Virus genome (UHGV): UHGV-1360109
Reading direction: 5' to 3' (one strand)
Length of the DNA: 25,357 nucleotides
Source of the DNA: a virus
The translations under genes were made by a program, and so were the position numbers. The notes beneath the pieces are model-generated. The model was not told where the DNA came from. It saw nothing but the letters and a program-made list of their open reading frames with translations, and did no database searches. Positions 2,062 to 23,484 of the stretch are shown piece after piece (the stretch's first letter is position 1; each line of letters opens with the position of its first letter).

Positions 2062-4260
2062 ATGGCAGAAAAAAAGATGACTGACTGGCATCGCAAGGTG
2101 CTGTGCAACTTTGATAATGCCTGGTCAGCAACGCAGGATATGCGTGAGCAGATTATTGAGGCTCAACGTTTCGTCCGGGTGTCCGGCGCACAGTGGGAAG
2201 GCAGCACAAACGCTGGTTACTCATTTGATGAAGGCAGGTTTGAGCATTACCCGCGCTTTGAACTGAATAAGATTGCCCGTGAATGTGATCGCATCATTGG
2301 CGAGTATCGACAGAATCGCATCAGCGTTAAATTCAGGCCGAAGGATGACAGGGCATCGGAAGCGTTAGCCGAAAAGATGAACGGCAAATTCCGCGCTGAT
2401 TATCAGGAAACATCCGGTGGCGAAGCGTGTGATAACGCATTTGATGATGCTGTAACGGGCGGATTCGGTTGTTTCCGCATGTGTGCTGATTACGAAGATG
2501 AAATGGATCCGAGTAACGAGCAGCGACGCATCAGCCTTCTTCCTGTTTACGACCCGGCGACATGCGTCTTCTTCGATCAGGACAGCAAGCAATATGACCG
2601 CTCTGATGCTATGTGGGCTATGGAAATGTTCTCCATGACGCCTAAAGCGTTCGAGGCTGAATACCCTGATTCCATCGCGGCAAGTCTTTCTCGTGATGAC
2701 ACTGGCACTCAATATGACTGGTCAACTCCTGATGCTATCTATGTTGGTCGCTACTACGAAGTTCGCATAGAGAAGGTGAAGCTCACAGCATGGCGTAACC
2801 CTGTTAGCGGAGAAACGGCAATCTATGATGAAGAGCAAATCAAAGATATTGTCGACGAGCTGACCGATGGTGCATTCGAACTGATTGGTGAGCGGACAGT
2901 GAAGAAACGCCGAGTTTATTGCGGTCTTCTGTCTGGCGCTGAATGGCTGGAAGAACCGAAGCGTATTCCGGGCGAACATATTCCTCTCATCCCGGTATAT
3001 GGGCGTCGTTCATTTGTTGATAATCAGGAGCGAATCGAAGGCCACGCAGCAAAAGCGATGGATGCACAGCGTCTTGAGAACCTGATGGTTTCCATGATTG
3101 CAGATAACGCTACTCAGGCTGGCGGTGATGGCATTCCTGTAGTTGATGTTGACATGATTCCTGGTCCTCTTGCCACTCATTGGGCGGAGCGCAACAAAAA
3201 GCGCCCGGCGTTCCTGCCGATGGTCAGTCTGAAAAACAAAAACGGAGATATTACTGCGCAGGCTCAGGTCAGCAGTTATACACCTCCGACACAAATGCCT
3301 CCTGCTCTTGCCGGGCTATTGCAGTACACCGGAACGGCTATTCAGAAAATTACAGGTGCGTCGCAGCTTGAGAACATGCCGAGCAACGTCGCCACCGATA
3401 CCGTTGATAGCATCTTTAACCGGATGGACACGCAGTCCTATATCTACATGGACAACATGGCTAAATCCATGCGTCGCGCTGGCGTTGTGTGGCTTTCTAT
3501 GGCGCGTGAGGTCTATGGCAGTGATACGCCGATGCGTATCGTTAATGAGGACGGCAGCGATGACGTGGCGCTGATGACTGGTGAAGTGGTTGACCGTCAG
3601 ACAGGGCAGGTTATCGCGCTTAATGACCTTTCGCAGGGCAACTATGAAGTGACTGTCGATGTCGGTCAGTCGTTCGCTACTCGCCGTGATGCAACGGTTA
3701 AGTCGTTACTTTCCATGCTGGCACTTATCCCACCAGGAACGCAGAAGCACGACCTTGTATCGTCGATGATTCTCGACAATATGGACGGCGAAGGGATGGG
3801 CGACCTTAAAGAATACAACCGCAATCAGTTGCTTCTGTCTGGCGTTATCAAGCCGAGAACGCCTGAAGAACAGCAGATGGTTGAACAGGCGAAACAACAA
3901 CAGGCCAGTCAGCCAGATCCGGCTATGGTTGCAGCGCAAGGTCAGCTTCTTGCAGGTCAGGCTGAATTGCAGAAAGCGCAGAACGAACAGGCAGCCATTC
4001 AGGTTAAAGCATTCCAGGCACAGACTGATGCTCAGGTTGCAGCGGCAAACGTTGTGAAAATCCTCGCATCTGCCGATAGCCAGCAGAAATCTGATATCCG
4101 CGAGGCTCTGAAACTGCTCGGACAGTTCCAGCAACAGCAAGGAGACAATGCCCGTGCTGATGCAGAGCTTGTCCTGAAAAGTCAGGCACAGGGTCATGCG
4201 CAGCGAATGGACATCAGCAGCATCCTGCAAAAATCAACCCAGCAACAATCACAGCAGTAA
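2062..4260 (+). CDS. portal protein (P22 gp1-like)
   Basis: 732 aa, immediately after terL; Gln/Ala-rich C-terminal tail typical of the P22 portal barrel; conserved gene order. Confidence 0.92.
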   Translation: MAEKKMTDWHRKVLCNFDNAWSATQDMREQIIEAQRFVRVSGAQWEGSTNAGYSFDEGRFEHYPRFELNKIARECDRIIGEYRQNRISVKFRPKDDRASEALAEKMNGKFRADYQETSGGEACDNAFDDAVTGGFGCFRMCADYEDEMDPSNEQRRISLLPVYDPATCVFFDQDSKQYDRSDAMWAMEMFSMTPKAFEAEYPDSIAASLSRDDTGTQYDWSTPDAIYVGRYYEVRIEKVKLTAWRNPVSGETAIYDEEQIKDIVDELTDGAFELIGERTVKKRRVYCGLLSGAEWLEEPKRIPGEHIPLIPVYGRRSFVDNQERIEGHAAKAMDAQRLENLMVSMIADNATQAGGDGIPVVDVDMIPGPLATHWAERNKKRPAFLPMVSLKNKNGDITAQAQVSSYTPPTQMPPALAGLLQYTGTAIQKITGASQLENMPSNVATDTVDSIFNRMDTQSYIYMDNMAKSMRRAGVVWLSMAREVYGSDTPMRIVNEDGSDDVALMTGEVVDRQTGQVIALNDLSQGNYEVTVDVGQSFATRRDATVKSLLSMLALIPPGTQKHDLVSSMILDNMDGEGMGDLKEYNRNQLLLSGVIKPRTPEEQQMVEQAKQQQASQPDPAMVAAQGQLLAGQAELQKAQNEQAAIQVKAFQAQTDAQVAAANVVKILASADSQQKSDIREALKLLGQFQQQQGDNARADAELVLKSQAQGHAQRMDISSILQKSTQQQSQQ

Positions 4261-4350
4261 TTAACCAATAACGTGCAATGGCTGTCTTTATGAGGCCTGG
4301 CACCCTATTGCCTTCCGATGGGCTGAACATCGAGTAAACAGGGGTAACAA

Positions 4351-5244
4351 ATGGACCAGATGGCAGAAAACACACCAGAAGTTGAAATAGAAACCGATAC
4401 ATCAGAGCAGATTCCTGATGATGTCGAACTGGCTGAAGAAGTCGAAACAGAAGATGGCAGTGAGTCCTCCGGCAATGATGCAGAGGAAGCTACTGAAACT
4501 GATGACGACGAATCAGAACAGGAATTCTACTTTGGTGACGAAAAGCTGGATTCGCCAACCAGCGAAGATGGCGCTGAGCATGGACTGGTAAAACACCTGC
4601 GCAAGACGATTAAAGAGAAAGACCGCGAGCTGAAAGAGCTGATGCGTCAGTCTCAGAAACCCGTCGAGCAGCAGCCGGTAATCACTCAACCACCGCGAAT
4701 GCCAAAACTGGATGATGAGGACATCGGTTTCGATGAAGAAATCTACCAGCAACGCATGGCTAAGTGGGCAGAGGATAACGGCAAGTACCAGCAACAGGAG
4801 ATGGCTCGCAAGCAGAAGGTGCAGGAGCTTCAGGCTGCCTATCAAGAGCGATTATCCAAATATCAGCAACGTGTTAAGGCTCTCAAGGTTCCTAGCTATC
4901 AGGAAGCTGAACAGGCCGTACTCGAGGAAATCTCCATCGAGACACAAAACGCGATCCTGTTTGAGTCAGAGAAGCCGGAAATCGTTGTTCTGGCACTCGG
5001 TCGCAACGCTGAACTGCGCAAGCAACTGGCAGAAGCTACCAACCCCGTAGCAATTGGTCGTCTGCTGGAACGTATCGAATCGAAGGCCAGAATCATGCCA
5101 AAAGCAAAAACCACGGCAGCCACAACCCCGACAGTTAAGGGGAGCAACGGCGCAGTAATCAATAACCTCGACAAACTGAAAGCCAAAGCGCTGGAAACTG
5201 GTGACTGGACGCCGTATTTCGCCGCTAAAAGGCAAAAAAAATAA
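4351..5244 (+). CDS. scaffolding protein (P22 gp8-like)
   Basis: 297 aa; very acidic N-terminus, coiled-coil-like middle, basic C-terminus (LDKLKAKALETGDW...KRQKK) resembling the coat-binding end of P22 scaffold; sits between portal and coat; AGGGG RBS. Confidence 0.85.
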   Translation: MDQMAENTPEVEIETDTSEQIPDDVELAEEVETEDGSESSGNDAEEATETDDDESEQEFYFGDEKLDSPTSEDGAEHGLVKHLRKTIKEKDRELKELMRQSQKPVEQQPVITQPPRMPKLDDEDIGFDEEIYQQRMAKWAEDNGKYQQQEMARKQKVQELQAAYQERLSKYQQRVKALKVPSYQEAEQAVLEEISIETQNAILFESEKPEIVVLALGRNAELRKQLAEATNPVAIGRLLERIESKARIMPKAKTTAATTPTVKGSNGAVINNLDKLKAKALETGDWTPYFAAKRQKK

Positions 5245-5262
5245 CCTATCGGAGCATTAAGC

Positions 5263-6528
5263 ATGGCTAACCAATTAGTAAAAGACCTTGAAATCATGTT
5301 CGAAAACTACGTTGAAGGCTTTGAGGCCGCCTGCGTAGTTTCCCGTAACGCTAAAAAATTCCGTCCCGGTGATACAGCAATGCAGCGAGTAGGTGATGTT
5401 CTGTATCGTCCGCAGCATTACCACATGAACATTGAGGAGGGCTTGGACCTCAGCGAAAAAACATCAACAGCACTGGTTCAGCGCCTTGTTCCTTCTGTGT
5501 TCAAGGAGCCGAAAAACATTCTGTACACTCTGGATGCGCGTGAAATGCGTGACCCTGAACATAAAACTGAAGCTGGTCGAGCCGCAGGTATGCGCCTTGC
5601 TGCACAGATTGACTCTGACCTGATTTCCATGGTCACGCAGCGTGCTACTAACGTGGTCGCAGTTCCTGACTCAGCAACTGGCTCGCGTGGCCTTGCCTTG
5701 TGGAATGGTGCGGCAGATATTGATGCCACCATGACGGCGATTGGTGTGCCGCAGGGTATCAACCGTCGCTCTTTCTGGAACCCCTTCAACTACAAAGACC
5801 TTGCTGGCGAGCTTGGTCACCGTGCCTACGCTCAGGGCGCAACCATGACAGCATACGAAAAAGCGCAAATCCCTCCGGTTGCTTCCTTCGATAGCTACAA
5901 GACCGATATTTCCGGTCGTGTTCCGGAGGGTAAGACTGTAGAAAATGGCATTAAGCTGACTGAAGAACCTAAGCACAAGGTTGAAGCGAAAGATGTTAAT
6001 GGTATGCCTGTTGATAACCGACAGGGGACAATTAAGGTATCTGCTGCGGGTTTGCAGGTTGGCGATGCGTTTACCATCGCAGGTGTGAATTCCGTACACC
6101 AGATCACCAAAGATACCACCGGGCAACCGCAGGTATTCCGCGTTCTGGCAGTAGACACAGCAGGAACCACCGTAACAATCTCTCCGAAAATTCTGCCGCC
6201 TAACAACACGGATACCGCCAGCCGTCCATATGCAAACGTTGATGCTAATGCGGCAAATAATGCAGTAATCACCATTCTCAACAAAAAAGCCGCACCGGCT
6301 AACCTGTTCTGGGCTGATGGTTCTGTTGAGCTGATGTACGGCAAACTGGCGTTCCCGACTGGTCAGGGTCCACAGGTAATGACTGCAACCACCGAGCAGG
6401 GCGCTACGCTGATCATGTCTTACGCCTTCGACCACATCAAAGGCGTAACCACTGCGCGTTTCACCACTCTGTACGGTTGCTCTGTACTTGTTCCTGAATA
6501 TACGGGCATCGTTATTGCCGGGCAGTAA
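5263..6528 (+). CDS. major capsid (coat) protein, P22 gp5-like
   Basis: 421 aa after the scaffold gene; segment YANVDANAANNAVITILNKKAAPANLFWADGS resembles the P22 coat YANV...FWADD region; followed by a strong terminator. Confidence 0.9.
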   Translation: MANQLVKDLEIMFENYVEGFEAACVVSRNAKKFRPGDTAMQRVGDVLYRPQHYHMNIEEGLDLSEKTSTALVQRLVPSVFKEPKNILYTLDAREMRDPEHKTEAGRAAGMRLAAQIDSDLISMVTQRATNVVAVPDSATGSRGLALWNGAADIDATMTAIGVPQGINRRSFWNPFNYKDLAGELGHRAYAQGATMTAYEKAQIPPVASFDSYKTDISGRVPEGKTVENGIKLTEEPKHKVEAKDVNGMPVDNRQGTIKVSAAGLQVGDAFTIAGVNSVHQITKDTTGQPQVFRVLAVDTAGTTVTISPKILPPNNTDTASRPYANVDANAANNAVITILNKKAAPANLFWADGSVELMYGKLAFPTGQGPQVMTATTEQGATLIMSYAFDHIKGVTTARFTTLYGCSVLVPEYTGIVIAGQ

Positions 6529-9329: not shown

Positions 9330-9784
9330 TGATTACATTCAAACCAACGCGAAACATCGACCTGATAGAAGCTGTCGGAAATCACCCTGACATTATTGCC
9401 GGGAGCAACAACGGTGATGGATACGACTACAAGCCTGAATGCCGTTACTTTGAGGTTAACGTGCACGGTCAGTTTGGCGGCATTGTTTACTATCAGGAGA
9501 TTCAGCCGCTTACATTCGATTGCCACGCCATGTACCTGCCAGAGGTTCGCGGATTCAGCAAGGAAATCGGGCTGGCGTTCTGGCGATACATTCTGACTAA
9601 CACCACCGTTCAGTGCGTCACGTCGTTCGCTGCACGCAAATTCCGCCACGGGCAGATGTACTGCGCAATGATTGGCCTTAAGCGTGTAGGAACCATCAAG
9701 AAATACTTCAAGGGCGTGGATGACGTGACTTTTTACAGCGCAACACGCGAAGAACTAATCGACTTCCTGAATCACGGGAGATAG
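9329..9784 (+). CDS. virion-associated protein in the gp14 slot
   Basis: 151 aa; start overlaps the gp26 stop; sits where P22 gene 14 lies (26-14-7-20-16); the sequence itself is not recognised. Confidence 0.55.
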   Translation: MITFKPTRNIDLIEAVGNHPDIIAGSNNGDGYDYKPECRYFEVNVHGQFGGIVYYQEIQPLTFDCHAMYLPEVRGFSKEIGLAFWRYILTNTTVQCVTSFAARKFRHGQMYCAMIGLKRVGTIKKYFKGVDDVTFYSATREELIDFLNHGR

Positions 9785-16205: not shown

Positions 16206-17129
16206 ATGACGAGTGTAGCAATTGCAGAACATACAATCAACGTTCCATTCCACGGAACAAATCTCTTTTTGGTCAGCATTAACAATGAACCTTACGTTCC
16301 TATGAAACCCGTTGTAGAAGGCATGGGTATGGTTTGGGCTGCTCAATTTGTTAAATTAAAACAGAGATTTGTCAAAGGTATTTCGGAAATCGAAATACCT
16401 TCTGCTGGCGGTAAACAGTTAATGATATGCCTTGCCTTTCGTAAGTTTGCGGCTTGGCTTTCAAGCATTCAGCCAAACAAAGTCCGCCCTGAAATCCGCG
16501 ACAAGGTAATCCAGTATCAGGAAGAGTGTGACGATGTGCTCTACGAGTACTGGACTAAAGGCTATGTAGTTAACCCACGCAAATCTAAAAAGGCGTTGCC
16601 GGGTAAAATCACCACTGAACAGCAGGAAGCCATTAAACAACTCGTCATGAGTCGCGGTCAGTCTCTGCCAAAAGAAAAACAGGCTAAGGCGATGATCACC
16701 ATGTGGTCGTCACTGAAATCCCATTTTGGATGTTCGTACAAAGAAATCAGTGAGGAGCAGTTTACAGAAGCACTGTCACTTGCAGCTCGAGTTCCGCTTG
16801 AAGGTGAGTTCATCGGCAAACAAGAGAAGAAAACCAACGAGCTTTCTGCAAAAGAAGCAAACAGCCTTGTATGGTTATGGGATTATGCCAACCGCTCACA
16901 GGCATTATTCCGCGAACTGTATCCGGCGCTAAAACAAATTCAATCGAACTATTCCGGCAGATGCTACGACTACGGTCATGAATTCTCGTATGTTATCGGA
17001 ATGGCGAGAGATGTTTTAATCAACCATACACGAGATGTTGATATTAATGAGCCAGACGGACCAACGAATCTTTCCGCATGGATGAGACTTAAGAATAAAG
17101 AATTACCTCCTTCAGTACATAACTACTGA
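16206..17129 (+). CDS. ant: antirepressor Ant
   Basis: 307 aa, close to P22 Ant (300 aa); position after arc; AGGA RBS; followed by a strong terminator. Confidence 0.82.
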
Positions 17130-17148
17130 TAGATAACCAACGCAACGA

Positions 17149-17171
17149 CCCAGCTTCGGCTGGGTTTTTTT
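17149..17171 (+). terminator. rho-independent terminator after ant
   Basis: CCCAGC-TTCG-GCTGGG hairpin followed by TTTTTTT. Confidence 0.8.
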
Positions 17172-17229
17172 ATGCCCAAAATTCACCGTAGCCATGCTTC
17201 GGCGATTCCTTGTATCTGGAGCAAATTAA

Positions 17230-20175
17230 ATGACAGACATTACAGCCAATGTTGTGGTAAGCATGCCTTCGCAACTCTTCACTATGGCGCGTTCTTTTAA
17301 AGCCGTAGCTAATGGCAAAATTTATATCGGTAAAATTGACACTGATCCTGTAAATCCAGAAAACCAGATTCAGGTCTATGTGGAGAATGAAGACGGTTCT
17401 CACGTTCCTGTTTCGCAACCAATAATCATTAACGCTGCTGGATATTCTGTATATAACGGACAGATTGCCAAATTCGTTACCGTGCAAGGCCATTCTATGG
17501 CTGTTTATGATGCGTATGGTGCGCAGCAGTTCTATTTTCCTAATGTGCTGAAGTATGACCCTGATCAACTACGGCAGCAATTAGAAGACCCAGATGGAGC
17601 GAATAAATACCCAAAACTTCAGATAGCAAGATGGAGAGACAGTTATGATGTAAGAGGTTGGGGGGCTATTGGTGATGGTGTTCATGATGATACATCAGCT
17701 CTATCAGAATTACTTTCTGTTGCAACAGGTGGTGAAAAGATAGATGGGCGAGGGCTTACTTTTAAAGTATCAACTCTTCCGGATGTCAGTCGATTTAAAA
17801 ATGCTCGTTTTTTATTTGAGAGAATACCGGGCCAGCCTCTTTTTTATGCTTCTGAAGATTTTATCCAGGGAGAGTTATTTAAAATTACAGATACACCGTG
17901 GTACAACGCCTGGACGCAGGATAAAACGTTTGTATATGACAATGTCATCTATGCGCCTTTTATGGCTGGAGACCGCCATGGTGTAAATAACCTCCATGTT
18001 GCATGGGTTCGCTCAGGAGATGACGGGAAGACCTGGACAACGCCGGAATGGCTTACAGATTTACATGAAAACTATCCCACAGTTAACTATCACTGCATGA
18101 GTATGGGGGTTGTCAGAAATCGCCTTTTTGCTGTAATTGAGACGCGGACCGTGAGAGGAAATAAACTGCAGGTTGCAGAGTTGTGGGATCGCCCAATGAG
18201 TCGCAGCCTTCGCGTTTATGGTGGTATAACGAAAGCAGCAAATCAGCAAGTCGCTTATATTCGCATTACTGATCACGGATTATTTGCTGGTGATTTTGTC
18301 AACTTCTCAAACTCTGGTGTTACAGATGTTACCGGGAATATGACGGTGACTACTGTTATTGATAAAAATACCTTTACAGTTACGACGCAAAATACCCAGG
18401 ATGTGGATCAGAATAACGAGGGTAGATACTGGAGTTTTGGTACATCATTTCACTCGTCACCATGGAGAAAAACCAGTCTTGGAACTATTCCTTCTTTTGT
18501 TGACGGAAGCACTCCTGTTACTGAGATTCACAGTTTTGCGACGATTAGCGATAACAGTTTTGCTGTTGGCTACCATAATGGTGATATTGGTCCACGCGAG
18601 CTTGGGATACTCTATTTCTCTGATGCTTTCGGTTCTCCTGGTAGCTTTGTTCGCAGACGCATACCTGCAGAATATGAGGCGAATGCATCTGAGCCATGTG
18701 TAAAATATTATGATGGCATTCTGTATCTGACGACCAGGGGGACATTAAGTACTCAACCCGGTAGTTCATTGCACAGAAGCTCTGATTTAGGTACATCATG
18801 GAATTCTCTTCGCTTCCCAAATAATGTTCATCACTCAAACCTTCCTTTTGCCAAAGTTGGCGATGAGCTGATTATTTTTGGCAGTGAGCGCGCATTTGGT
18901 GAGTGGGAAGGAGGAGAACCTGATAACCGTTATGCAGGAAATTATCCAAGAACATTTATGACCAGAGTTAACGTCAATGAGTGGAGTCTGGATAATGTAG
19001 AGTGGGTTAATGTTACTGATCAGATTTATCAGGGCGGAATAGTTAACTCTGCGGTTGGTGTTGGTTCAGTTTGTATCAAAGACAACTGGCTGTACTACAT
19101 TTTCGGTGGGGAAGATTTTCTAAACCCATGGAGCATAGGGGATAACAACAGAAAATATCCTTATGTTCACGATGGTCACCCGGCTGATTTGTATTGTTTC
19201 AGGGTGAAAATTAAACAGGAAGAATTTGTTTCAAGGGATTTTGTCTACGGAGCCACTCCTAACAGAACGCTTCCTACTTTTATGTCGACGTCAGGCGTGA
19301 GGACGGTTCCTGTACCCGTTGATTTCACAGATGATGTTGCCGTCCAGTCACTGACTGTCCATGCAGGTACATCAGGACAAGTTCGCGCGGAAGTCAAACT
19401 TGAGGGTAATTACGCCATTATTGCGAAGAAAGTACCGTCTGATGATGTTACCGCTCAGAGATTAATCGTTAGCGGCGGTGAAACAACGTCTTCAGCAGAT
19501 GGTGCAATGATAACGTTGCATGGTTCCAGAAGCAGTACTCCACGTCGCGCGGTATATAACGCACTCGAACATCTTTTTGAGAACGGAGATGTTAAACCTT
19601 ATCTTGATAATGTAAATGCTCTTGGTGGTCCGGGAAACAGGTTCTCGATAGTTTATCTTGGCTCCAATCCTGTGGTTACCAGTGACGGAACATTAAAGAC
19701 AGAGCCGGTCTCTCCTGACGAAACATTGCTGGATGCCTGGGGTGACGTCAGGTATATCGCTTATAAATGGCTGAACGCTGTCGCTATAAAGGGGGAAGAA
19801 GGGGCGAGGATACATCATGGTGTAATCGCGCAGCAACTTCGTGATGTTCTTATTTCTCACGGACTCATGGAAGAAGAAAGCACAACATGCCGCTATGCGT
19901 TTCTTTGCTATGACGATTATCCCGCAGTATATGATGACGTCATTACTGGCCAAAGGGAAATGCCGCTGACTGATAATGACGGGAGCATCATTGTTGATGA
20001 GGATGATAATCCAGTGATGGTAATGGAAGACATCATTGAGCGCGTTGAAATAACGCCAGCAGGATCTAGATGGGGGGTCAGGCCTGATCTCTTATTCTAT
20101 ATCGAGGCGGCATGGCAGCGCAGAGAAATGGATAAGATAAAAGCTAGGTTAGACTTAATAGAAGGGAAGCACTAA
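17230..20175 (+). CDS. tailspike: P22 gp9-like head-binding N-terminus fused to an endosialidase body with a C-terminal intramolecular chaperone domain
   Basis: 981 aa; first ~110 aa ([59 protein letters not shown]...[15 protein letters not shown]...VLKYDPDQ) match the P22 tailspike N-terminus; Asp-box motifs SGDDGKTW and SSDLGTSW; TSDGTLK near the C-terminal ~160 aa fits the Ser-Lys auto-cleaving chaperone pattern; GGAG RBS. Confidence 0.88.
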
Positions 20176-20321
20176 ATGTTTCGTTGGCGTCAAAAATATG
20201 AACTGCTCACATAAAGAAGTAAGTACATTGGCAAAAAACATTGACGTCAACGAAATTAAATATAAAACATCATGCAGACATATTACCAATATTAATATAA
20301 GGTAATAAAAATATAATTTAC

Positions 20322-20348
20322 AAAAAAGGCCCGTTGGAAGCGACGGGC
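20322..20348 (-). terminator. minus-strand rho-independent terminator beyond attP (possible tI/sib analogue)
   Basis: Minus strand reads GCCCGT-CGCTTCCA-ACGGGC followed by CTTTTTT; sits where leftward transcripts through int and att would end. Confidence 0.5.
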
Positions 20349-20654
20349 ATTAACCGCGGTAATGGATAAATTATTAATGTTTTTAGATTGTGAACGATAT
20401 CATATTGTGCGGAAGTAGTGAAGTAACCATGTAAAATGATTGTTTCATAGCCTATGAGACACACAAGGCTTTGTGCTCTTCGATAGTTGTTAAGGCGGAT
20501 CACTCTACCTTCTCATCAATCCAGTCCGCCCCCACTGCATCATTTCTCTGCGCTTATCGAGATACTGAGCATGGTTGTAAATTCAACTAACCCAGTCCGT
20601 TGACAAAAAATTAGCGCAAGAGGACAAAAAATCACCTTGCGCTAATGCTCTGCC

Positions 20655-20885
20655 TCAGGTCACTAATACTATCTAAGTAGTTGATTCATAGTGACTGGAT
20701 ATGTTGTGTTTTGTCGCGTTTTGCAGTCTATTATTTAATCATTAAGTAATCTAATACTATGATTTTTAAATTATTTATGTGGTTTTGTCATCCTTAAGGT
20801 GAATAAGTTGTATATTTAAAATATCTTTTGTTATCAATGAATTAATGTAAGCAGGTCATTATTAGTCAAAATAAAATCATTTGTC
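20655..20885. other. lambda-like attP region (arm-type Int sites); core not pinpointed
   Basis: CAGGTCACTAATACTATCTAAGTAGTTGATTCATAGTGACTGGATATGTTGTGTTTT (P arm) and AGGTCATTATTAGTCAAAATAAAATCATTTG (P' arm, overlapping the int 3' end) closely match lambda attP arm sequences; the central ~100 bp differs from lambda. Confidence 0.7.
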
Positions 20886-21950
20886 GATTTCAATTTTGTC
20901 CCATTCCCGTCCACGGCTGTCCCTATACCGCGCCGCCATTGAATCTGATTTATGCCCGAGAAGACGTTGAGCAAACTTATCGCCAATCTGGTTCCGGTAT
21001 AGCCTCGCTGACAGGCTACGCAGTTCATGGAATGTTGGCGGGTTTCCATCAAATGAGAGTCCAGATGCATTTCTCGCCTTTGTAAAATACTTTGATACTG
21101 TTTTCGGGGAAAGCGGATCGTGATGCTTTGATGCGATTATAGTTTCACTGCTGCTGGCCTCCCTGCATTTCTGTAGTGTATCAGCCAATGAGATATTGAG
21201 CGCGTCAATCGTTAGCGTTAGCGGAATGGCGAGTTTAGCCCCTGTTTTACTCTGTTCAATGTGAAGATGGTTGTCGTTTATGTCTGACCATTTCATTCTG
21301 CACAAATCGCCGACTCTCTGCCCTGTAACGACGGCCAAATCCATCGCCAGCCTTAGCCAGATAGGGAGAGGTTCGGCTGCATGGTAAATCTCGACATACT
21401 CATTAGCTGTCAGCCTTGAGCGCCTTACTTCTGACTTTGCTGTACGGGTTGCTGTTACCGGATTCGTTGCCACATGCCCCTCGGCTATTGCTTCACGAAA
21501 AACGTCAACAAGGGTTGACCTGATTAATTTTGCGGAAGCTGCTTTACCTTCCGCTACGTAGGTGTTTAGCATTGCTGCCACATCTTTCGTTGATATGTCA
21601 GTGAGCGGTTTGTCCGGCAATTTTCTTCGGATTGCCCTGATTTTGCTGGCGTAGTCGAGTAGAGTTTTCGGCCTGATCCCCCTTTCGGTGAGGATTCTTT
21701 CATATCGGTCAAGCCACACATGAAGAGTGATTGCGTCACCGCCTTTAATTCTGTCTATCAGTGATTTGCGTCCGCTGTCTGAGAGTAACTCAATATTGGC
21801 CTGTATTGCTTCAGTGATTGCTATCCTCCTGTCTCGGCCTAATCCAAACTCTTTACCCGTCCTTGGGTCCCTGTAGCAGTAATATCCATTGTTTCTTATA
21901 TAAAGGTTAGGGGGTAAATCCCGGCGCTCATGACTTCGCCTTCTTCCCAT
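20877..21950 (-). CDS. int: integrase, lambda Int family tyrosine recombinase
   Basis: 357 aa; N-terminus MGRRRSHERRDLPPNLYIRNNGYYCYRDPRTGKEFGLGRDRRIAITEAIQAN and C-terminus HELRSLSARLY...LLGHKSD...YRD.RGREWDKIEI match lambda Int as I recall it. Confidence 0.95.
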   Translation of the reverse strand: MGRRRSHERRDLPPNLYIRNNGYYCYRDPRTGKEFGLGRDRRIAITEAIQANIELLSDSGRKSLIDRIKGGDAITLHVWLDRYERILTERGIRPKTLLDYASKIRAIRRKLPDKPLTDISTKDVAAMLNTYVAEGKAASAKLIRSTLVDVFREAIAEGHVATNPVTATRTAKSEVRRSRLTANEYVEIYHAAEPLPIWLRLAMDLAVVTGQRVGDLCRMKWSDINDNHLHIEQSKTGAKLAIPLTLTIDALNISLADTLQKCREASSSETIIASKHHDPLSPKTVSKYFTKARNASGLSFDGNPPTFHELRSLSARLYRNQIGDKFAQRLLGHKSDSMAARYRDSRGREWDKIEIDK

Positions 21951-22146
21951 TTCTGATCCTCTTCAAAAGGCTACCTGTTACTGGTCGATTTAAGTCAACC
22001 TTTACCGCTGATTCGTGGAACAGATACTCTCTTCCATCCTTAACCGGAGGAGGGAATATCCTGCATTCGCGCACCCATCGACGAACTGTTTCAAGGCTTC
22101 TTGGGCGTCGCTGGCGAGCGTTCCACTCCTGAAGTGTCAAGTACAT
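21928..22146 (-). CDS. xis: excisionase
   Basis: 72 aa (MYLTLQEWNARQRRPRSLETVRRWVRECRIFPPPVKDGREYLFHESAVKVDLNRPVTGSLLKRIRNGKKAKS), essentially lambda Xis; overlaps the int start as in lambda. Confidence 0.95.
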   Translation of the reverse strand: MYLTLQEWNARQRRPRSLETVRRWVRECRIFPPPVKDGREYLFHESAVKVDLNRPVTGSLLKRIRNGKKAKS

Positions 22147-22203
22147 CGCAAAGTCTCCGCAATTACTCGCAAGGGAACGAGTAGTGGTTGATTTTTCTCC
22201 AAC

Positions 22204-22223
22204 AAAAAAGGAGCCGAAGCTCC
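22204..22223 (-). terminator. minus-strand rho-independent terminator between the antirepressor-like gene and xis
   Basis: Minus strand reads GGAGC-TTCG-GCTCC followed by TTTTTTG. Confidence 0.6.
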
Positions 22224-22231
22224 TTTGATGA

Positions 22232-22855
22232 TTAAAATTCGAATTGTCTCGCCCGAAGGCTTTTCAACATTGGTCTTGCCCGTTCGAAAACGGCGCTTGC
22301 CTGGTCAAGTCGTGTCGCCTCCCTGAGCAGTACATCTCTGTTTTTCGTCACCGCATAGAAGGTTTCAAACGCAATGTCATACAGCTTACTCGCGTATGAT
22401 GAGTTAAGTTCCTTCATTATCGGGTACAGGCGTTTGCAGATGTCCTGTGCATTCTCCATCTGTACCTGCATGTAGCAGAGGAGGATGATTTCCTCGTCTG
22501 TGAATTGCTGCGCTGGTTGCATGCTGCGAAGTTTCTTTTCGCACTCGATGAAGTATCGGCGTATCTGGCGGCCTTTTTCGTTGCGCTCGACCATCGCAGT
22601 TTCTTTGGCCGTATCGAGGGTGAGGTGATAGTCTTTGCTACGGCGATCGCCTCCTCGACCTTTGATTTCCCGATTTGGGGAAACCAAAATATAGTCCTGA
22701 TTTTCAACGAAACCATATTCAGCAATGCGTTCTGTAATCCACGATGCAAAGCGTTTACCTACCCCAAGAAAAGTATGTAAATCGCGAGCATTAACGAGAA
22801 GAGTGGTTTCGTTGGCGATAGTGCCGTTGAATACGGGGATGAGTTGAATAGCCAT
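22232..22855 (-). CDS. antirepressor-like protein (Bro-N/AntA-type N-terminal domain)
   Basis: 207 aa from ATG 22855 with AGGAG 9 nt upstream; N-terminus MAIQLIPVFNGTIANETTLLVNARDLHTFLGVGKRFASWITERIAEYGFVENQDYI resembles phage AntA/Bro-N domains; ORF-track start at 22891 is a longer alternative. Confidence 0.65.
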   Translation of the reverse strand: MAIQLIPVFNGTIANETTLLVNARDLHTFLGVGKRFASWITERIAEYGFVENQDYILVSPNREIKGRGGDRRSKDYHLTLDTAKETAMVERNEKGRQIRRYFIECEKKLRSMQPAQQFTDEEIILLCYMQVQMENAQDICKRLYPIMKELNSSYASKLYDIAFETFYAVTKNRDVLLREATRLDQASAVFERARPMLKSLRARQFEF

Positions 22856-23196
22856 AATCATGACTCCTGACGTTTTAGTATTGACTGCCACCTTAGTGGG
22901 GTGGCGGGCTTCAACTACCGCGTCAGACGGCGGAGCTTATTTCCCGAAAGGGTGTTCTATTAGGCTCTCTCGACCCGCCATAGATATGGCGATACCTGTA
23001 AACAGGCATAAAAAAGCCGCAAAGCTATCGGGTGCGGTTGACCGCTGACGTTGTAGTGCGGTCAGTATGCGATAGCTCTGGCGGATTTGTCAAATCATGT
23101 AGCCTTTATCCTGCTGTAAGCCGCGCCATTCGGGATTTTCCCCATATTTGGGGAAAACTATCTGCGAAGTATTCACCTTTGACGGCAAGTTGCAGG

Positions 23197-23484
23197 TTAG
23201 CCACGACCTTCCTCCTTTGGCTTGTGAATTTGTATCGTCATGCCGCTTTGAGTGGTGACTACAATGACAGAACCAGGCTGAAGGCTGTTAAGATTGAATG
23301 CTTCGTAAAATGAATCCAATGCCAGTGCTTTTTTATTCTTTCGGTTCCACCAACGCCATCCCTTGCTACAGGCTACACTGACAATCCACTGTCCACTCCT
23401 GTAAGCCATATAAAACCAGATGAGCAAAACCTGAAGGAAGGCTATCCAGTCAATAATCGTATATTTCGCGAAGGAGTCCATCAC
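23197..23484 (-). CDS. small membrane protein, unknown function
   Basis: 95 aa; one hydrophobic segment (IIDWIAFLQVLLIWFYMAY) followed by a basic patch; ATG overlaps the stop of the upstream DUF551 gene (ATGA). Confidence 0.5.
   Translation of the reverse strand: MMDSFAKYTIIDWIAFLQVLLIWFYMAYRSGQWIVSVACSKGWRWWNRKNKKALALDSFYEAFNLNSLQPGSVIVVTTQSGMTIQIHKPKEEGRG

Follow-up and report, generated by a model that had tools for sequence, protein, structure and literature searches.

Which integration system does a phage use when its attachment site has the arms of lambda attP and a core that is not that of lambda, and at which chromosomal site would it insert? The question arises from the virus genome UHGV-1360109, of which a stretch of 25,357 nucleotides (here called the window) was analysed. 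The stretch 20656-20883 of the window is very probably a functional attP belonging to the variant of the lambda integration system that is known from HK022, located on a CUS-3-like, P22-type, K1-specific phage. Each of its elements is supported by homology, int and xis are intact, and natural attL and attR sites between torS and torT carry exactly the two halves of this attP.

The site is embedded between structural and recombinase genes. The tailspike gene (17230-20175, plus strand, 981 aa) is followed by a spacer of 426 bp (20176-20601), by a sib/tI hairpin (20602-20654), by about 230 bp of AT-rich DNA and finally by int (20877-21950) and xis on the minus strand. The hairpin and the complete attP lie within 20602-20883. 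The contiguity of tailspike, att and int, which was claimed in the original prediction, is thus confirmed. A BLAST search of 20176-20900 against phage records revealed the annotated attP of HK022 (X51962, AF069308; 89.6% identity over window positions 20584-20900, E=6e-109), the P22-like phage Gally (92.7%) and lambda-type phages (about 80%). In the HK022 record X51962 two annotated features occupy the homologous stretch, a 'sib transcription processing site' of 50 bp and, after it, an 'attP site', and the record of phage mEp235 contains an 'attachment site (type HK022)'. The window, lambda, HK022, Gally and mEp235 could be aligned free of gaps across the roughly 230 bp, and identities were scored for each segment.

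Core, recombinases and arms of the attachment site

The att sites of HK022 are composed of 7-bp Int-binding sites around a 7-bp overlap, which is necessarily identical in attP and attB (PMC7736782; PMC5512741), and the 21-bp B-O-B' structure of attB has been described (PMC7736782). In the alignment with lambda the core of the window is placed at 20790-20810, in agreement with the interval of about 20790-20820 that had been proposed for it. All three parts are read on the plus strand: the core-type Int site C (ATCCTTA, 20790-20796), the overlap O as the region of strand exchange (AGGTGAA, 20797-20803) and the core-type Int site C' (TAAGTTG, 20804-20810). The overlap is the same as in attP and attB of HK022 (PMC7736782), while C' is common to lambda, HK022 and the window and is also present at the torS-side attL of 12 lysogens. 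HK022, Gally and mEp235 share the core ATCCTTT-AGGTGAA-TAAGTTG, to which the window is identical in 20 of 21 positions (95%; C 6/7, O 7/7, C' 7/7). With the lambda core CAGCTTT-TTTATAC-TAAGTTG only 11 of 21 positions (52%) are shared, and only one of seven in the overlap. A core of lambda specificity (common core GCTTTTTTATACTAA, overlap TTTATAC) was therefore ruled out. The sole difference to HK022 lies at 20796, directly in front of the overlap on its 5' side, where T is replaced by A. Since overlap and C' match and C carries a single substitution, the core previously described as diverged does differ from that of lambda, but it is simply the known HK022 core with one change, which had been missed.

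The recombinases point in the same direction. The int gene encodes a heterobivalent tyrosine integrase of 357 aa and of HK022 specificity, with the Pfam domains Arm-DNA-bind_1 (residues 1-68), Phage_int_SAM_1 and Phage_integrase. It is 96% identical to HK022 Int, 94% to Gally Int and 75% to lambda Int, so that its earlier description as lambda-like and clearly diverged is correct. The catalytic residues R212, K235, H308, R311, H333 and Y342 are all kept and are invariant in the protein alignment. Residues 1-55 are the same as in lambda, and this identity of the arm-binding domain explains the conserved arm sites. Five residues account for the difference in specificity between HK022 Int and lambda Int (PMC6007267), and N99 and H329 are named as specificity positions (PMC10863862). 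At the positions where the two specificities differ, the Int of the window carries the HK022 residues D99, P282, K283, K287, R319 and R329. The remaining specificity positions are reportedly those of Dorgai et al. 1995. The xis gene (21928-22146, minus strand) encodes an excisionase of 72 aa (Pfam Exc, E=3.9e-41), whose identity is 100% with the Xis of HK022 and 99% with that of lambda. The int-xis module comprises the sole integrase of the window.

The arms are indeed near-identical to those of lambda, as was noticed from the sequence: the segment P1-H1-P2-X1 shows 90% and the segment P'1-P'3 93% identity. The corresponding values for HK022 are even higher (98% and 100%). The segments in between are more variable, with 62% identity to lambda and 75% to HK022 in the centre of the P arm and 52% and 86%, respectively, in the spacer between C' and H'. 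In the P arm an arm-type Int site on the plus strand (20657-20666, AGGTCACTAA), which we take to be P1 by homology to the lambda map, is the same in lambda and HK022 at the aligned position. It is followed by the IHF site H1 (20674-20686, minus strand, AATCAACTACTTA), an exact match to the consensus WATCAANNNNTTR that is kept in lambda and HK022, and by the arm-type site P2 (20688-20697, CAGTCACTAT on the minus strand), which is common to lambda, HK022, Gally and the window. The Xis-binding region X1/X1.5/X2 (20700-20732) overlaps a Fis site and is named by homology only. Its X1 (TATGTTGTGTTTT) is the same as in lambda, while X2 reads TTTGCAGTCTATT in the window and Gally and TATGTAGTCTGTT in lambda; two to three positions of X2 differ from lambda and from HK022. 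The IHF site H2 (20752-20764, minus strand, AATCATAGTATTA) deviates from the consensus in one position and lies at the position homologous to lambda H2; its ATCAT variant is also present in HK022. On the other side of the core, the IHF site H' (20832-20844, plus strand, TATCAATGAATTA) matches the consensus exactly at the position homologous to lambda H'. In all 25 kb of the window the IHF consensus is matched exactly at H1 and H' and nowhere else. The arm-type sites P'1 (20853-20862), P'2 (20863-20872) and P'3 (20874-20883) were placed on the plus strand by alignment with HK022 and lambda, and P'3 overlaps the stop codon of int. Over 20853-20880 the window agrees with HK022 in 28 of 28 and with lambda in 26 of 28 positions. 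The misc_binding features 'int 1-4' of the lambda record J02459 were not used for placing the P' sites, as 'int 4' falls inside int when judged by the aligned P'1-P'3. Taken together, the arm-type sites P1, P2 and P'1-P'3 and the IHF sites H1, H2 and H' show the arrangement known from lambda.

The sib/tI hairpin is an element of the minus strand that, in the direction of int, comes after attP and precedes a U-run. In the alignment the hairpin is nearly invariant (92% identity to lambda, 94% to HK022). The predicted fold has an energy of -39.2 kcal/mol (z=-4.85), and none of 200 shuffled sequences folds as well. A permissive Rfam scan of 20000-22400 gave zero matches, which is consistent with sib having no curated Rfam family. 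By analogy with lambda, an intact attP would be the condition under which sib destabilises int mRNA from read-through.

From these elements a course of recombination as in HK022 and lambda may be proposed. The lambda-identical N-terminal domain of Int would bind the five lambda-type arm sites, and IHF would bend the DNA at H1, H2 and H'. The core-binding and catalytic domains of HK022 type are predicted to recognise C (ATCCTTA) and C' (TAAGTTG). Strand exchange would then take place over AGGTGAA with the 21-bp attB GCACTT(T/A)-AGGTGAA-AAAGGTT between torS and torT of E. coli. Xis, being that of HK022, would direct excision together with the X sites. Located just beyond the P arm, sib may provide a retroregulation of int in the style of lambda, operating only with an intact attP.

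The target site between torS and torT

An Int with 96% and an Xis with 100% identity to those of HK022 imply that the target is already known, namely attB(HK022) between torS and torT (PMC6814406). We searched E. coli complete genomes with both halves of the attP. The matches end at the core, rightward from 20793 and leftward up to 20810, and the junctions found are those at torS-torT, which bears out the earlier suspicion that the target may not be lambda attB. No junction at ybhC-ybhB was seen among the natural junctions examined.

In the genome of VR50 the int-proximal half adjoins torS as attL (cggtcggtGCACTTT-AGGTGAA-TAAGTTG, that is GCACTTT-AGGTGAA-TAAGTTG; window sequence from 20797), and the tailspike-proximal half adjoins torT as attR (ATCCTTA-AGGTGAA-AAAGGTTgagtcg, that is ATCCTTA-AGGTGAA-AAAGGTT; window sequence up to 20803). 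The two sites are 43.5 kb apart, and the site of the window is split between them, so that it was rightly called attP and not attL or attR. The left end of the VR50 prophage matches window positions 20793-23205 with 99.96% and the right end 16796-20810 with 98.6% identity. AVS0578 shows the same arrangement as VR50, and in the two genomes the halves lie about 42-43 kb apart around a P22-like prophage. The junction reads …AGGTGAATAAGTTG in attP, …AGGTGAAAAAGGTT in attR and GCACTT[T/A]AGGTGAATAAG… in attL. In VR50 AGGTGAA is the only stretch common to attP, attL, attR and attB, with a mismatch on either side. The reconstructed empty site corresponds to the published attB(HK022) oligonucleotide (PMC5512741), and in all of ten long contigs encoding an identical Int torS is located immediately beyond attL. 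The integration site can thus be assigned with confidence to attB(HK022) at torS-torT.

A scan of the GTDB representative genomes with the attB pattern gave four matches only, all from Escherichia/Shigella, and a scan of the same genomes with the C-O pattern gave zero matches. Among 5,426 E. coli genomes the site is unoccupied in 5,216 (about 96%). According to Carey et al., the insertion point of HK022 lies between torS and torT, and prophages with an HK022-like Int occupy it in about 5% of E. coli genomes (PMC6814406). As a separate observation, in E. coli KCJ3K291 (NZ_CP054407.1), which contains a prophage with A at the position of 20796, attL (3,059,412) and attR (1,979,640) are about 1.08 Mb apart; this indicates that the chromosome has undergone a large rearrangement, one end of which falls within the prophage or close to it.

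Prophages at torS-torT replace the torS promoter and change the bet-hedging of aerobic trimethylamine N-oxide reductase expression in E. coli (PMC6814406). A K1-specific, CUS-3-like phage with an HK022 module would link a virulence-associated lineage to this regulatory effect on torS. A promoter-like sequence (TCGACA-18 nt-AATAAT) is found at 20858-20887 on the minus strand, in the P' arm and the 3' end of int, pointing to the core and hence to torS in a lysogen. As the promoter scan revealed three matches in total and 3.9 are expected by chance, this match is no more than a candidate counterpart of the torS promoter that HK022 is reported to carry (PMC6814406).

The base beside the overlap and competing readings

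The base that adjoins the overlap varies in both partners. Among the 5,426 genomes, exact 34-mers spanning attR contain ATCCTTA in 14 and ATCCTTT in 163 cases, and the prophages of VR50 and AVS0578 likewise have ATCCTTA in their attR. On the side of the host, attB reads GCACTTT or GCACTTA (an example being the attB at 2998-3018 of the examined torS-torT pieces). With the A allele as query, 1,332 of 5,416 records fall into the band of at least 99%, which corresponds to roughly one quarter of E. coli with GCACTTA. The equivalent position varies between T and A in the four core sites of lambda, which fits a tolerated change. VR50 has T in attL and A in attR at the position of 20796. The partners thus each retained the base they had, which is what one expects of a position that adjoins the exchanged segment without belonging to it, and the natural T/A polymorphism gives an independent mark for the left limit of that segment. 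The A at 20796 is a recurrent and tolerated minority allele, which leaves the target unchanged.

It could also be argued that the change from T to A is adaptive, as it extends the identity of attP and attB to 11 bp (CTTAAGGTGAA) in GCACTTA hosts, or that it was gained by an occasional exchange one base outside the overlap. Both alleles do exist on both partners, at least 6 of the 14 lysogens of A-phages also have A at attL, and the T of HK022's own C site corresponds to the T of the K-12 attB. However, A is common at attL among all lysogens (96 genomes), the sampled genomes are clonally related and 6 of 14 is a minimum count, so that these numbers do not amount to an association between phage and host alleles, and VR50 represents an A-phage in a T-host with the alleles staying on their own sides. 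We therefore regard this explanation as very unlikely; if it were true, phage and host att alleles would co-evolve at 20796, either by exchange outside the overlap or by selection for longer identity. A lambda-specificity attP with a mutated core that still targets gal-bio (ybhC-ybhB) would account for the arm sites, the Xis and the arm-binding domain of Int, all of which are essentially those of lambda. This reading can practically be dismissed, because the overlap and the specificity positions of Int are those of HK022 and every natural junction examined is located at torS-torT, so that it is refuted by the junction data. Decayed att relics carried as passengers, like the lambda-like int/att remnants in prophages of Shiga toxin-producing E. 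coli (STEC), do exist, for example with a frameshifted int in O157:H7 TR01, and the window itself holds the remnant of another integrase at 20499-20582. That the attP of the window is such a non-functional relic is nevertheless highly improbable, since int and xis are of full length with all catalytic residues, the integrase is the only one in the window, and identical halves form bona fide attL and attR sites in several genomes.

Several points weigh against the assignment as a functional HK022-type attP. The recombination activity of 20656-20883 with its Int is deduced by analogy, and binding, catalysis and retroregulation are likewise adopted from what has been published on HK022 and lambda. 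The middle of the P arm with X2, F and H2 (20717-20789) is only 75% identical to HK022, although it is 97% identical to Gally, and the binding of Xis, Fis and IHF in this part is assumed from the sequence. The C site departs from HK022 at the base adjoining the cleavage point. Neither IMG/VR nor the aligned phages with a full attP (HK022, mEp235, Gally) contain an intact A-allele attP: an exact search of IMG/VR gave zero matches, and a degenerate C-O pattern revealed only T-allele sites there, namely those of HK022 and mEp235 and four ends of contigs with attR. Records of the A allele are limited to the attR of prophages and to one contig that stops at the overlap. This is the Logan contig SRR12234489_1138 (22 kb, from short reads), which encodes an identical tailspike and whose final letters, …ATCCTTAAGGTGAA, take it precisely to the end of the overlap (20803; 9560-9574 of the examined piece). 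Such an end is expected in an assembly graph if reads continue both as attP and as attR. Its presence is suggestive of both forms in that sample, which is not known as the source of the window.

The presence of an HK022-type attP does not settle from which kind of DNA the sequence was obtained. The junction in the window is attP and the 25 kb contain no bacterial DNA, and it had been concluded from the contiguity that the sequence comes from a virion, a circular form or a phage genome record. The attP configuration stands, while the source is not proven by it. In E. coli EC5931 (NZ_CP104592.1, about 3,014,000-3,056,000) the order torS-int-xis-...-tailspike-attP-int-xis-... with repeated protein accessions indicates a dilysogen, in which two copies of a P22-like prophage stand in tandem at torS-torT and an intact attP of HK022 type lies between them. 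Since this attP lies inside a chromosome, contiguity does not prove free phage DNA as the source. The window could in the same way be an internal attP between tandem prophage copies at torS-torT, and the notation '(HK022)n' for the HK022 lysogens in PMC6814406 is in line with such arrangements. Tandem lysogens appear to be rare, however, as in a search with a 361-bp attP query only one record matched it over its full length with an identity above 90%, and 25 kb of phage DNA without host sequence fits either source. We consider an origin from tandem prophages rather unlikely and a virion, a circular form or a phage record the likely source.

Carrier phage and known relatives

The carrier is a CUS-3-like phage of the P22 type (Lederbergvirus) with a K1 endosialidase tailspike. 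A Pfam scan of the tailspike revealed a P22 head-binding domain and endosialidase domains, and over window positions 1-20582 both the K1-specific phage CUS-3 and phiv205-1 reach an identity of about 96%. Directly abutting sib, 20499-20582 on the minus strand contains the frameshifted last 27 or so codons (about 84 bp) of an integrase of the CUS-3/IntS type (IYNHAQYLDKRREMMQW... / ...ADWIDEKVE*). The CUS-3/Sf6/IntS-type module was considered as integration system of the window and ruled out, because only these codons are left. The O-acetyltransferase gene neuO (843 bp, with poly-psi heptanucleotide repeats; 1592-2435 of the CUS-3 piece), which CUS-3 carries in the interval from tailspike to int, is absent from the window at about 20257-20267. 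The IntS-type remnant abutting sib and the absence of neuO indicate that an HK022-type sib-attP-int-xis cassette replaced the usual integration module, and the remnant looks like the scar of this swap.

Some further observations concern the surroundings of the module. In EC5931 and VR50 the remnant at 20499-20582 is recorded as a pseudogene, either of an integrase or hypothetical, and it also matches sib-adjacent DNA in records of phages resembling 434. At the position of neuO an acyltransferase is present in several E. coli prophages whose flanks are the same. Immediately beyond xis, 22232-22891 on the minus strand encodes an antirepressor-like protein of 219 aa (AntA/P22_AR_C), and the same order of xis and antirepressor is found in VR50, AVS0578 and most contigs with identical Int. 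Terminator-like GC hairpins with T-runs are located on the minus strand at 20329-20348, in the spacer after the tailspike gene, and at 22207-22226, between xis and the antirepressor-like gene. In O157:H7 TR01 (4001-5275 of the examined piece) a decayed lambda-like int pseudogene is accompanied by a complete sib-attP-like stretch with 80.8% identity to the window. It is located in an effector island beside nleA, nleH1-2 and nleF, and similar matches are found in about 400 STEC genomes.

The element is already known and well understood. Its attP, its Int and Xis, its sib and the matching attB all belong to the HK022 type, and P22-like carriers such as Gally have already been described. RefSeq genomes such as VR50 already hold the same halves as attL and attR, and only the minor C-site allele is new. 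The value of the present analysis is mainly one of annotation, and the understanding of recombination in the lambda family is unchanged.

The closest known system is HK022 (X51962, NC_002166; Yagil et al. 1989 via PMC6814406), which shares the layout sib-P1-H1-P2-X-H2-C-O-C'-H'-P'1-3-int-xis, the 73 bp that separate the junction from the stop codon of int, the attB between torS and torT, the overlap, C', the P' arm, Xis and nearly all of Int. It differs in the C site (ATCCTTT), in the centre of the P arm and in its carrier, which is a siphovirus, whereas the window represents a P22-like podovirus with a K1 endosialidase tailspike. Gally (OV696608), a P22-like prophage of the adherent-invasive E. 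coli LF82, is also a Lederbergvirus with the order tailspike-sib-attP-int-xis. It is located between torS and torT (PMC9928086) and is the phage closest to the window in the att region, with nearly the same centre of the P arm, but has the C site ATCCTTT, another tailspike (2.4 kb) and another spacer gene between tailspike and sib. Lambda (J02459) shares the arm-type sites, H1, H', X1, sib, Xis and an essentially identical N-terminus of Int, and presumably the mechanism; it differs in core and overlap, in the core-specificity residues of its Int and in its target, gal-bio in contrast to torS-torT. CUS-3 (CP000711), a prophage of E. coli RS218, has the structural genes, the endosialidase tailspike and the spacer after the tailspike in common with the window, while it uses its own integrase of the IntS/Sf6 type and carries the neuO gene that the window lacks.

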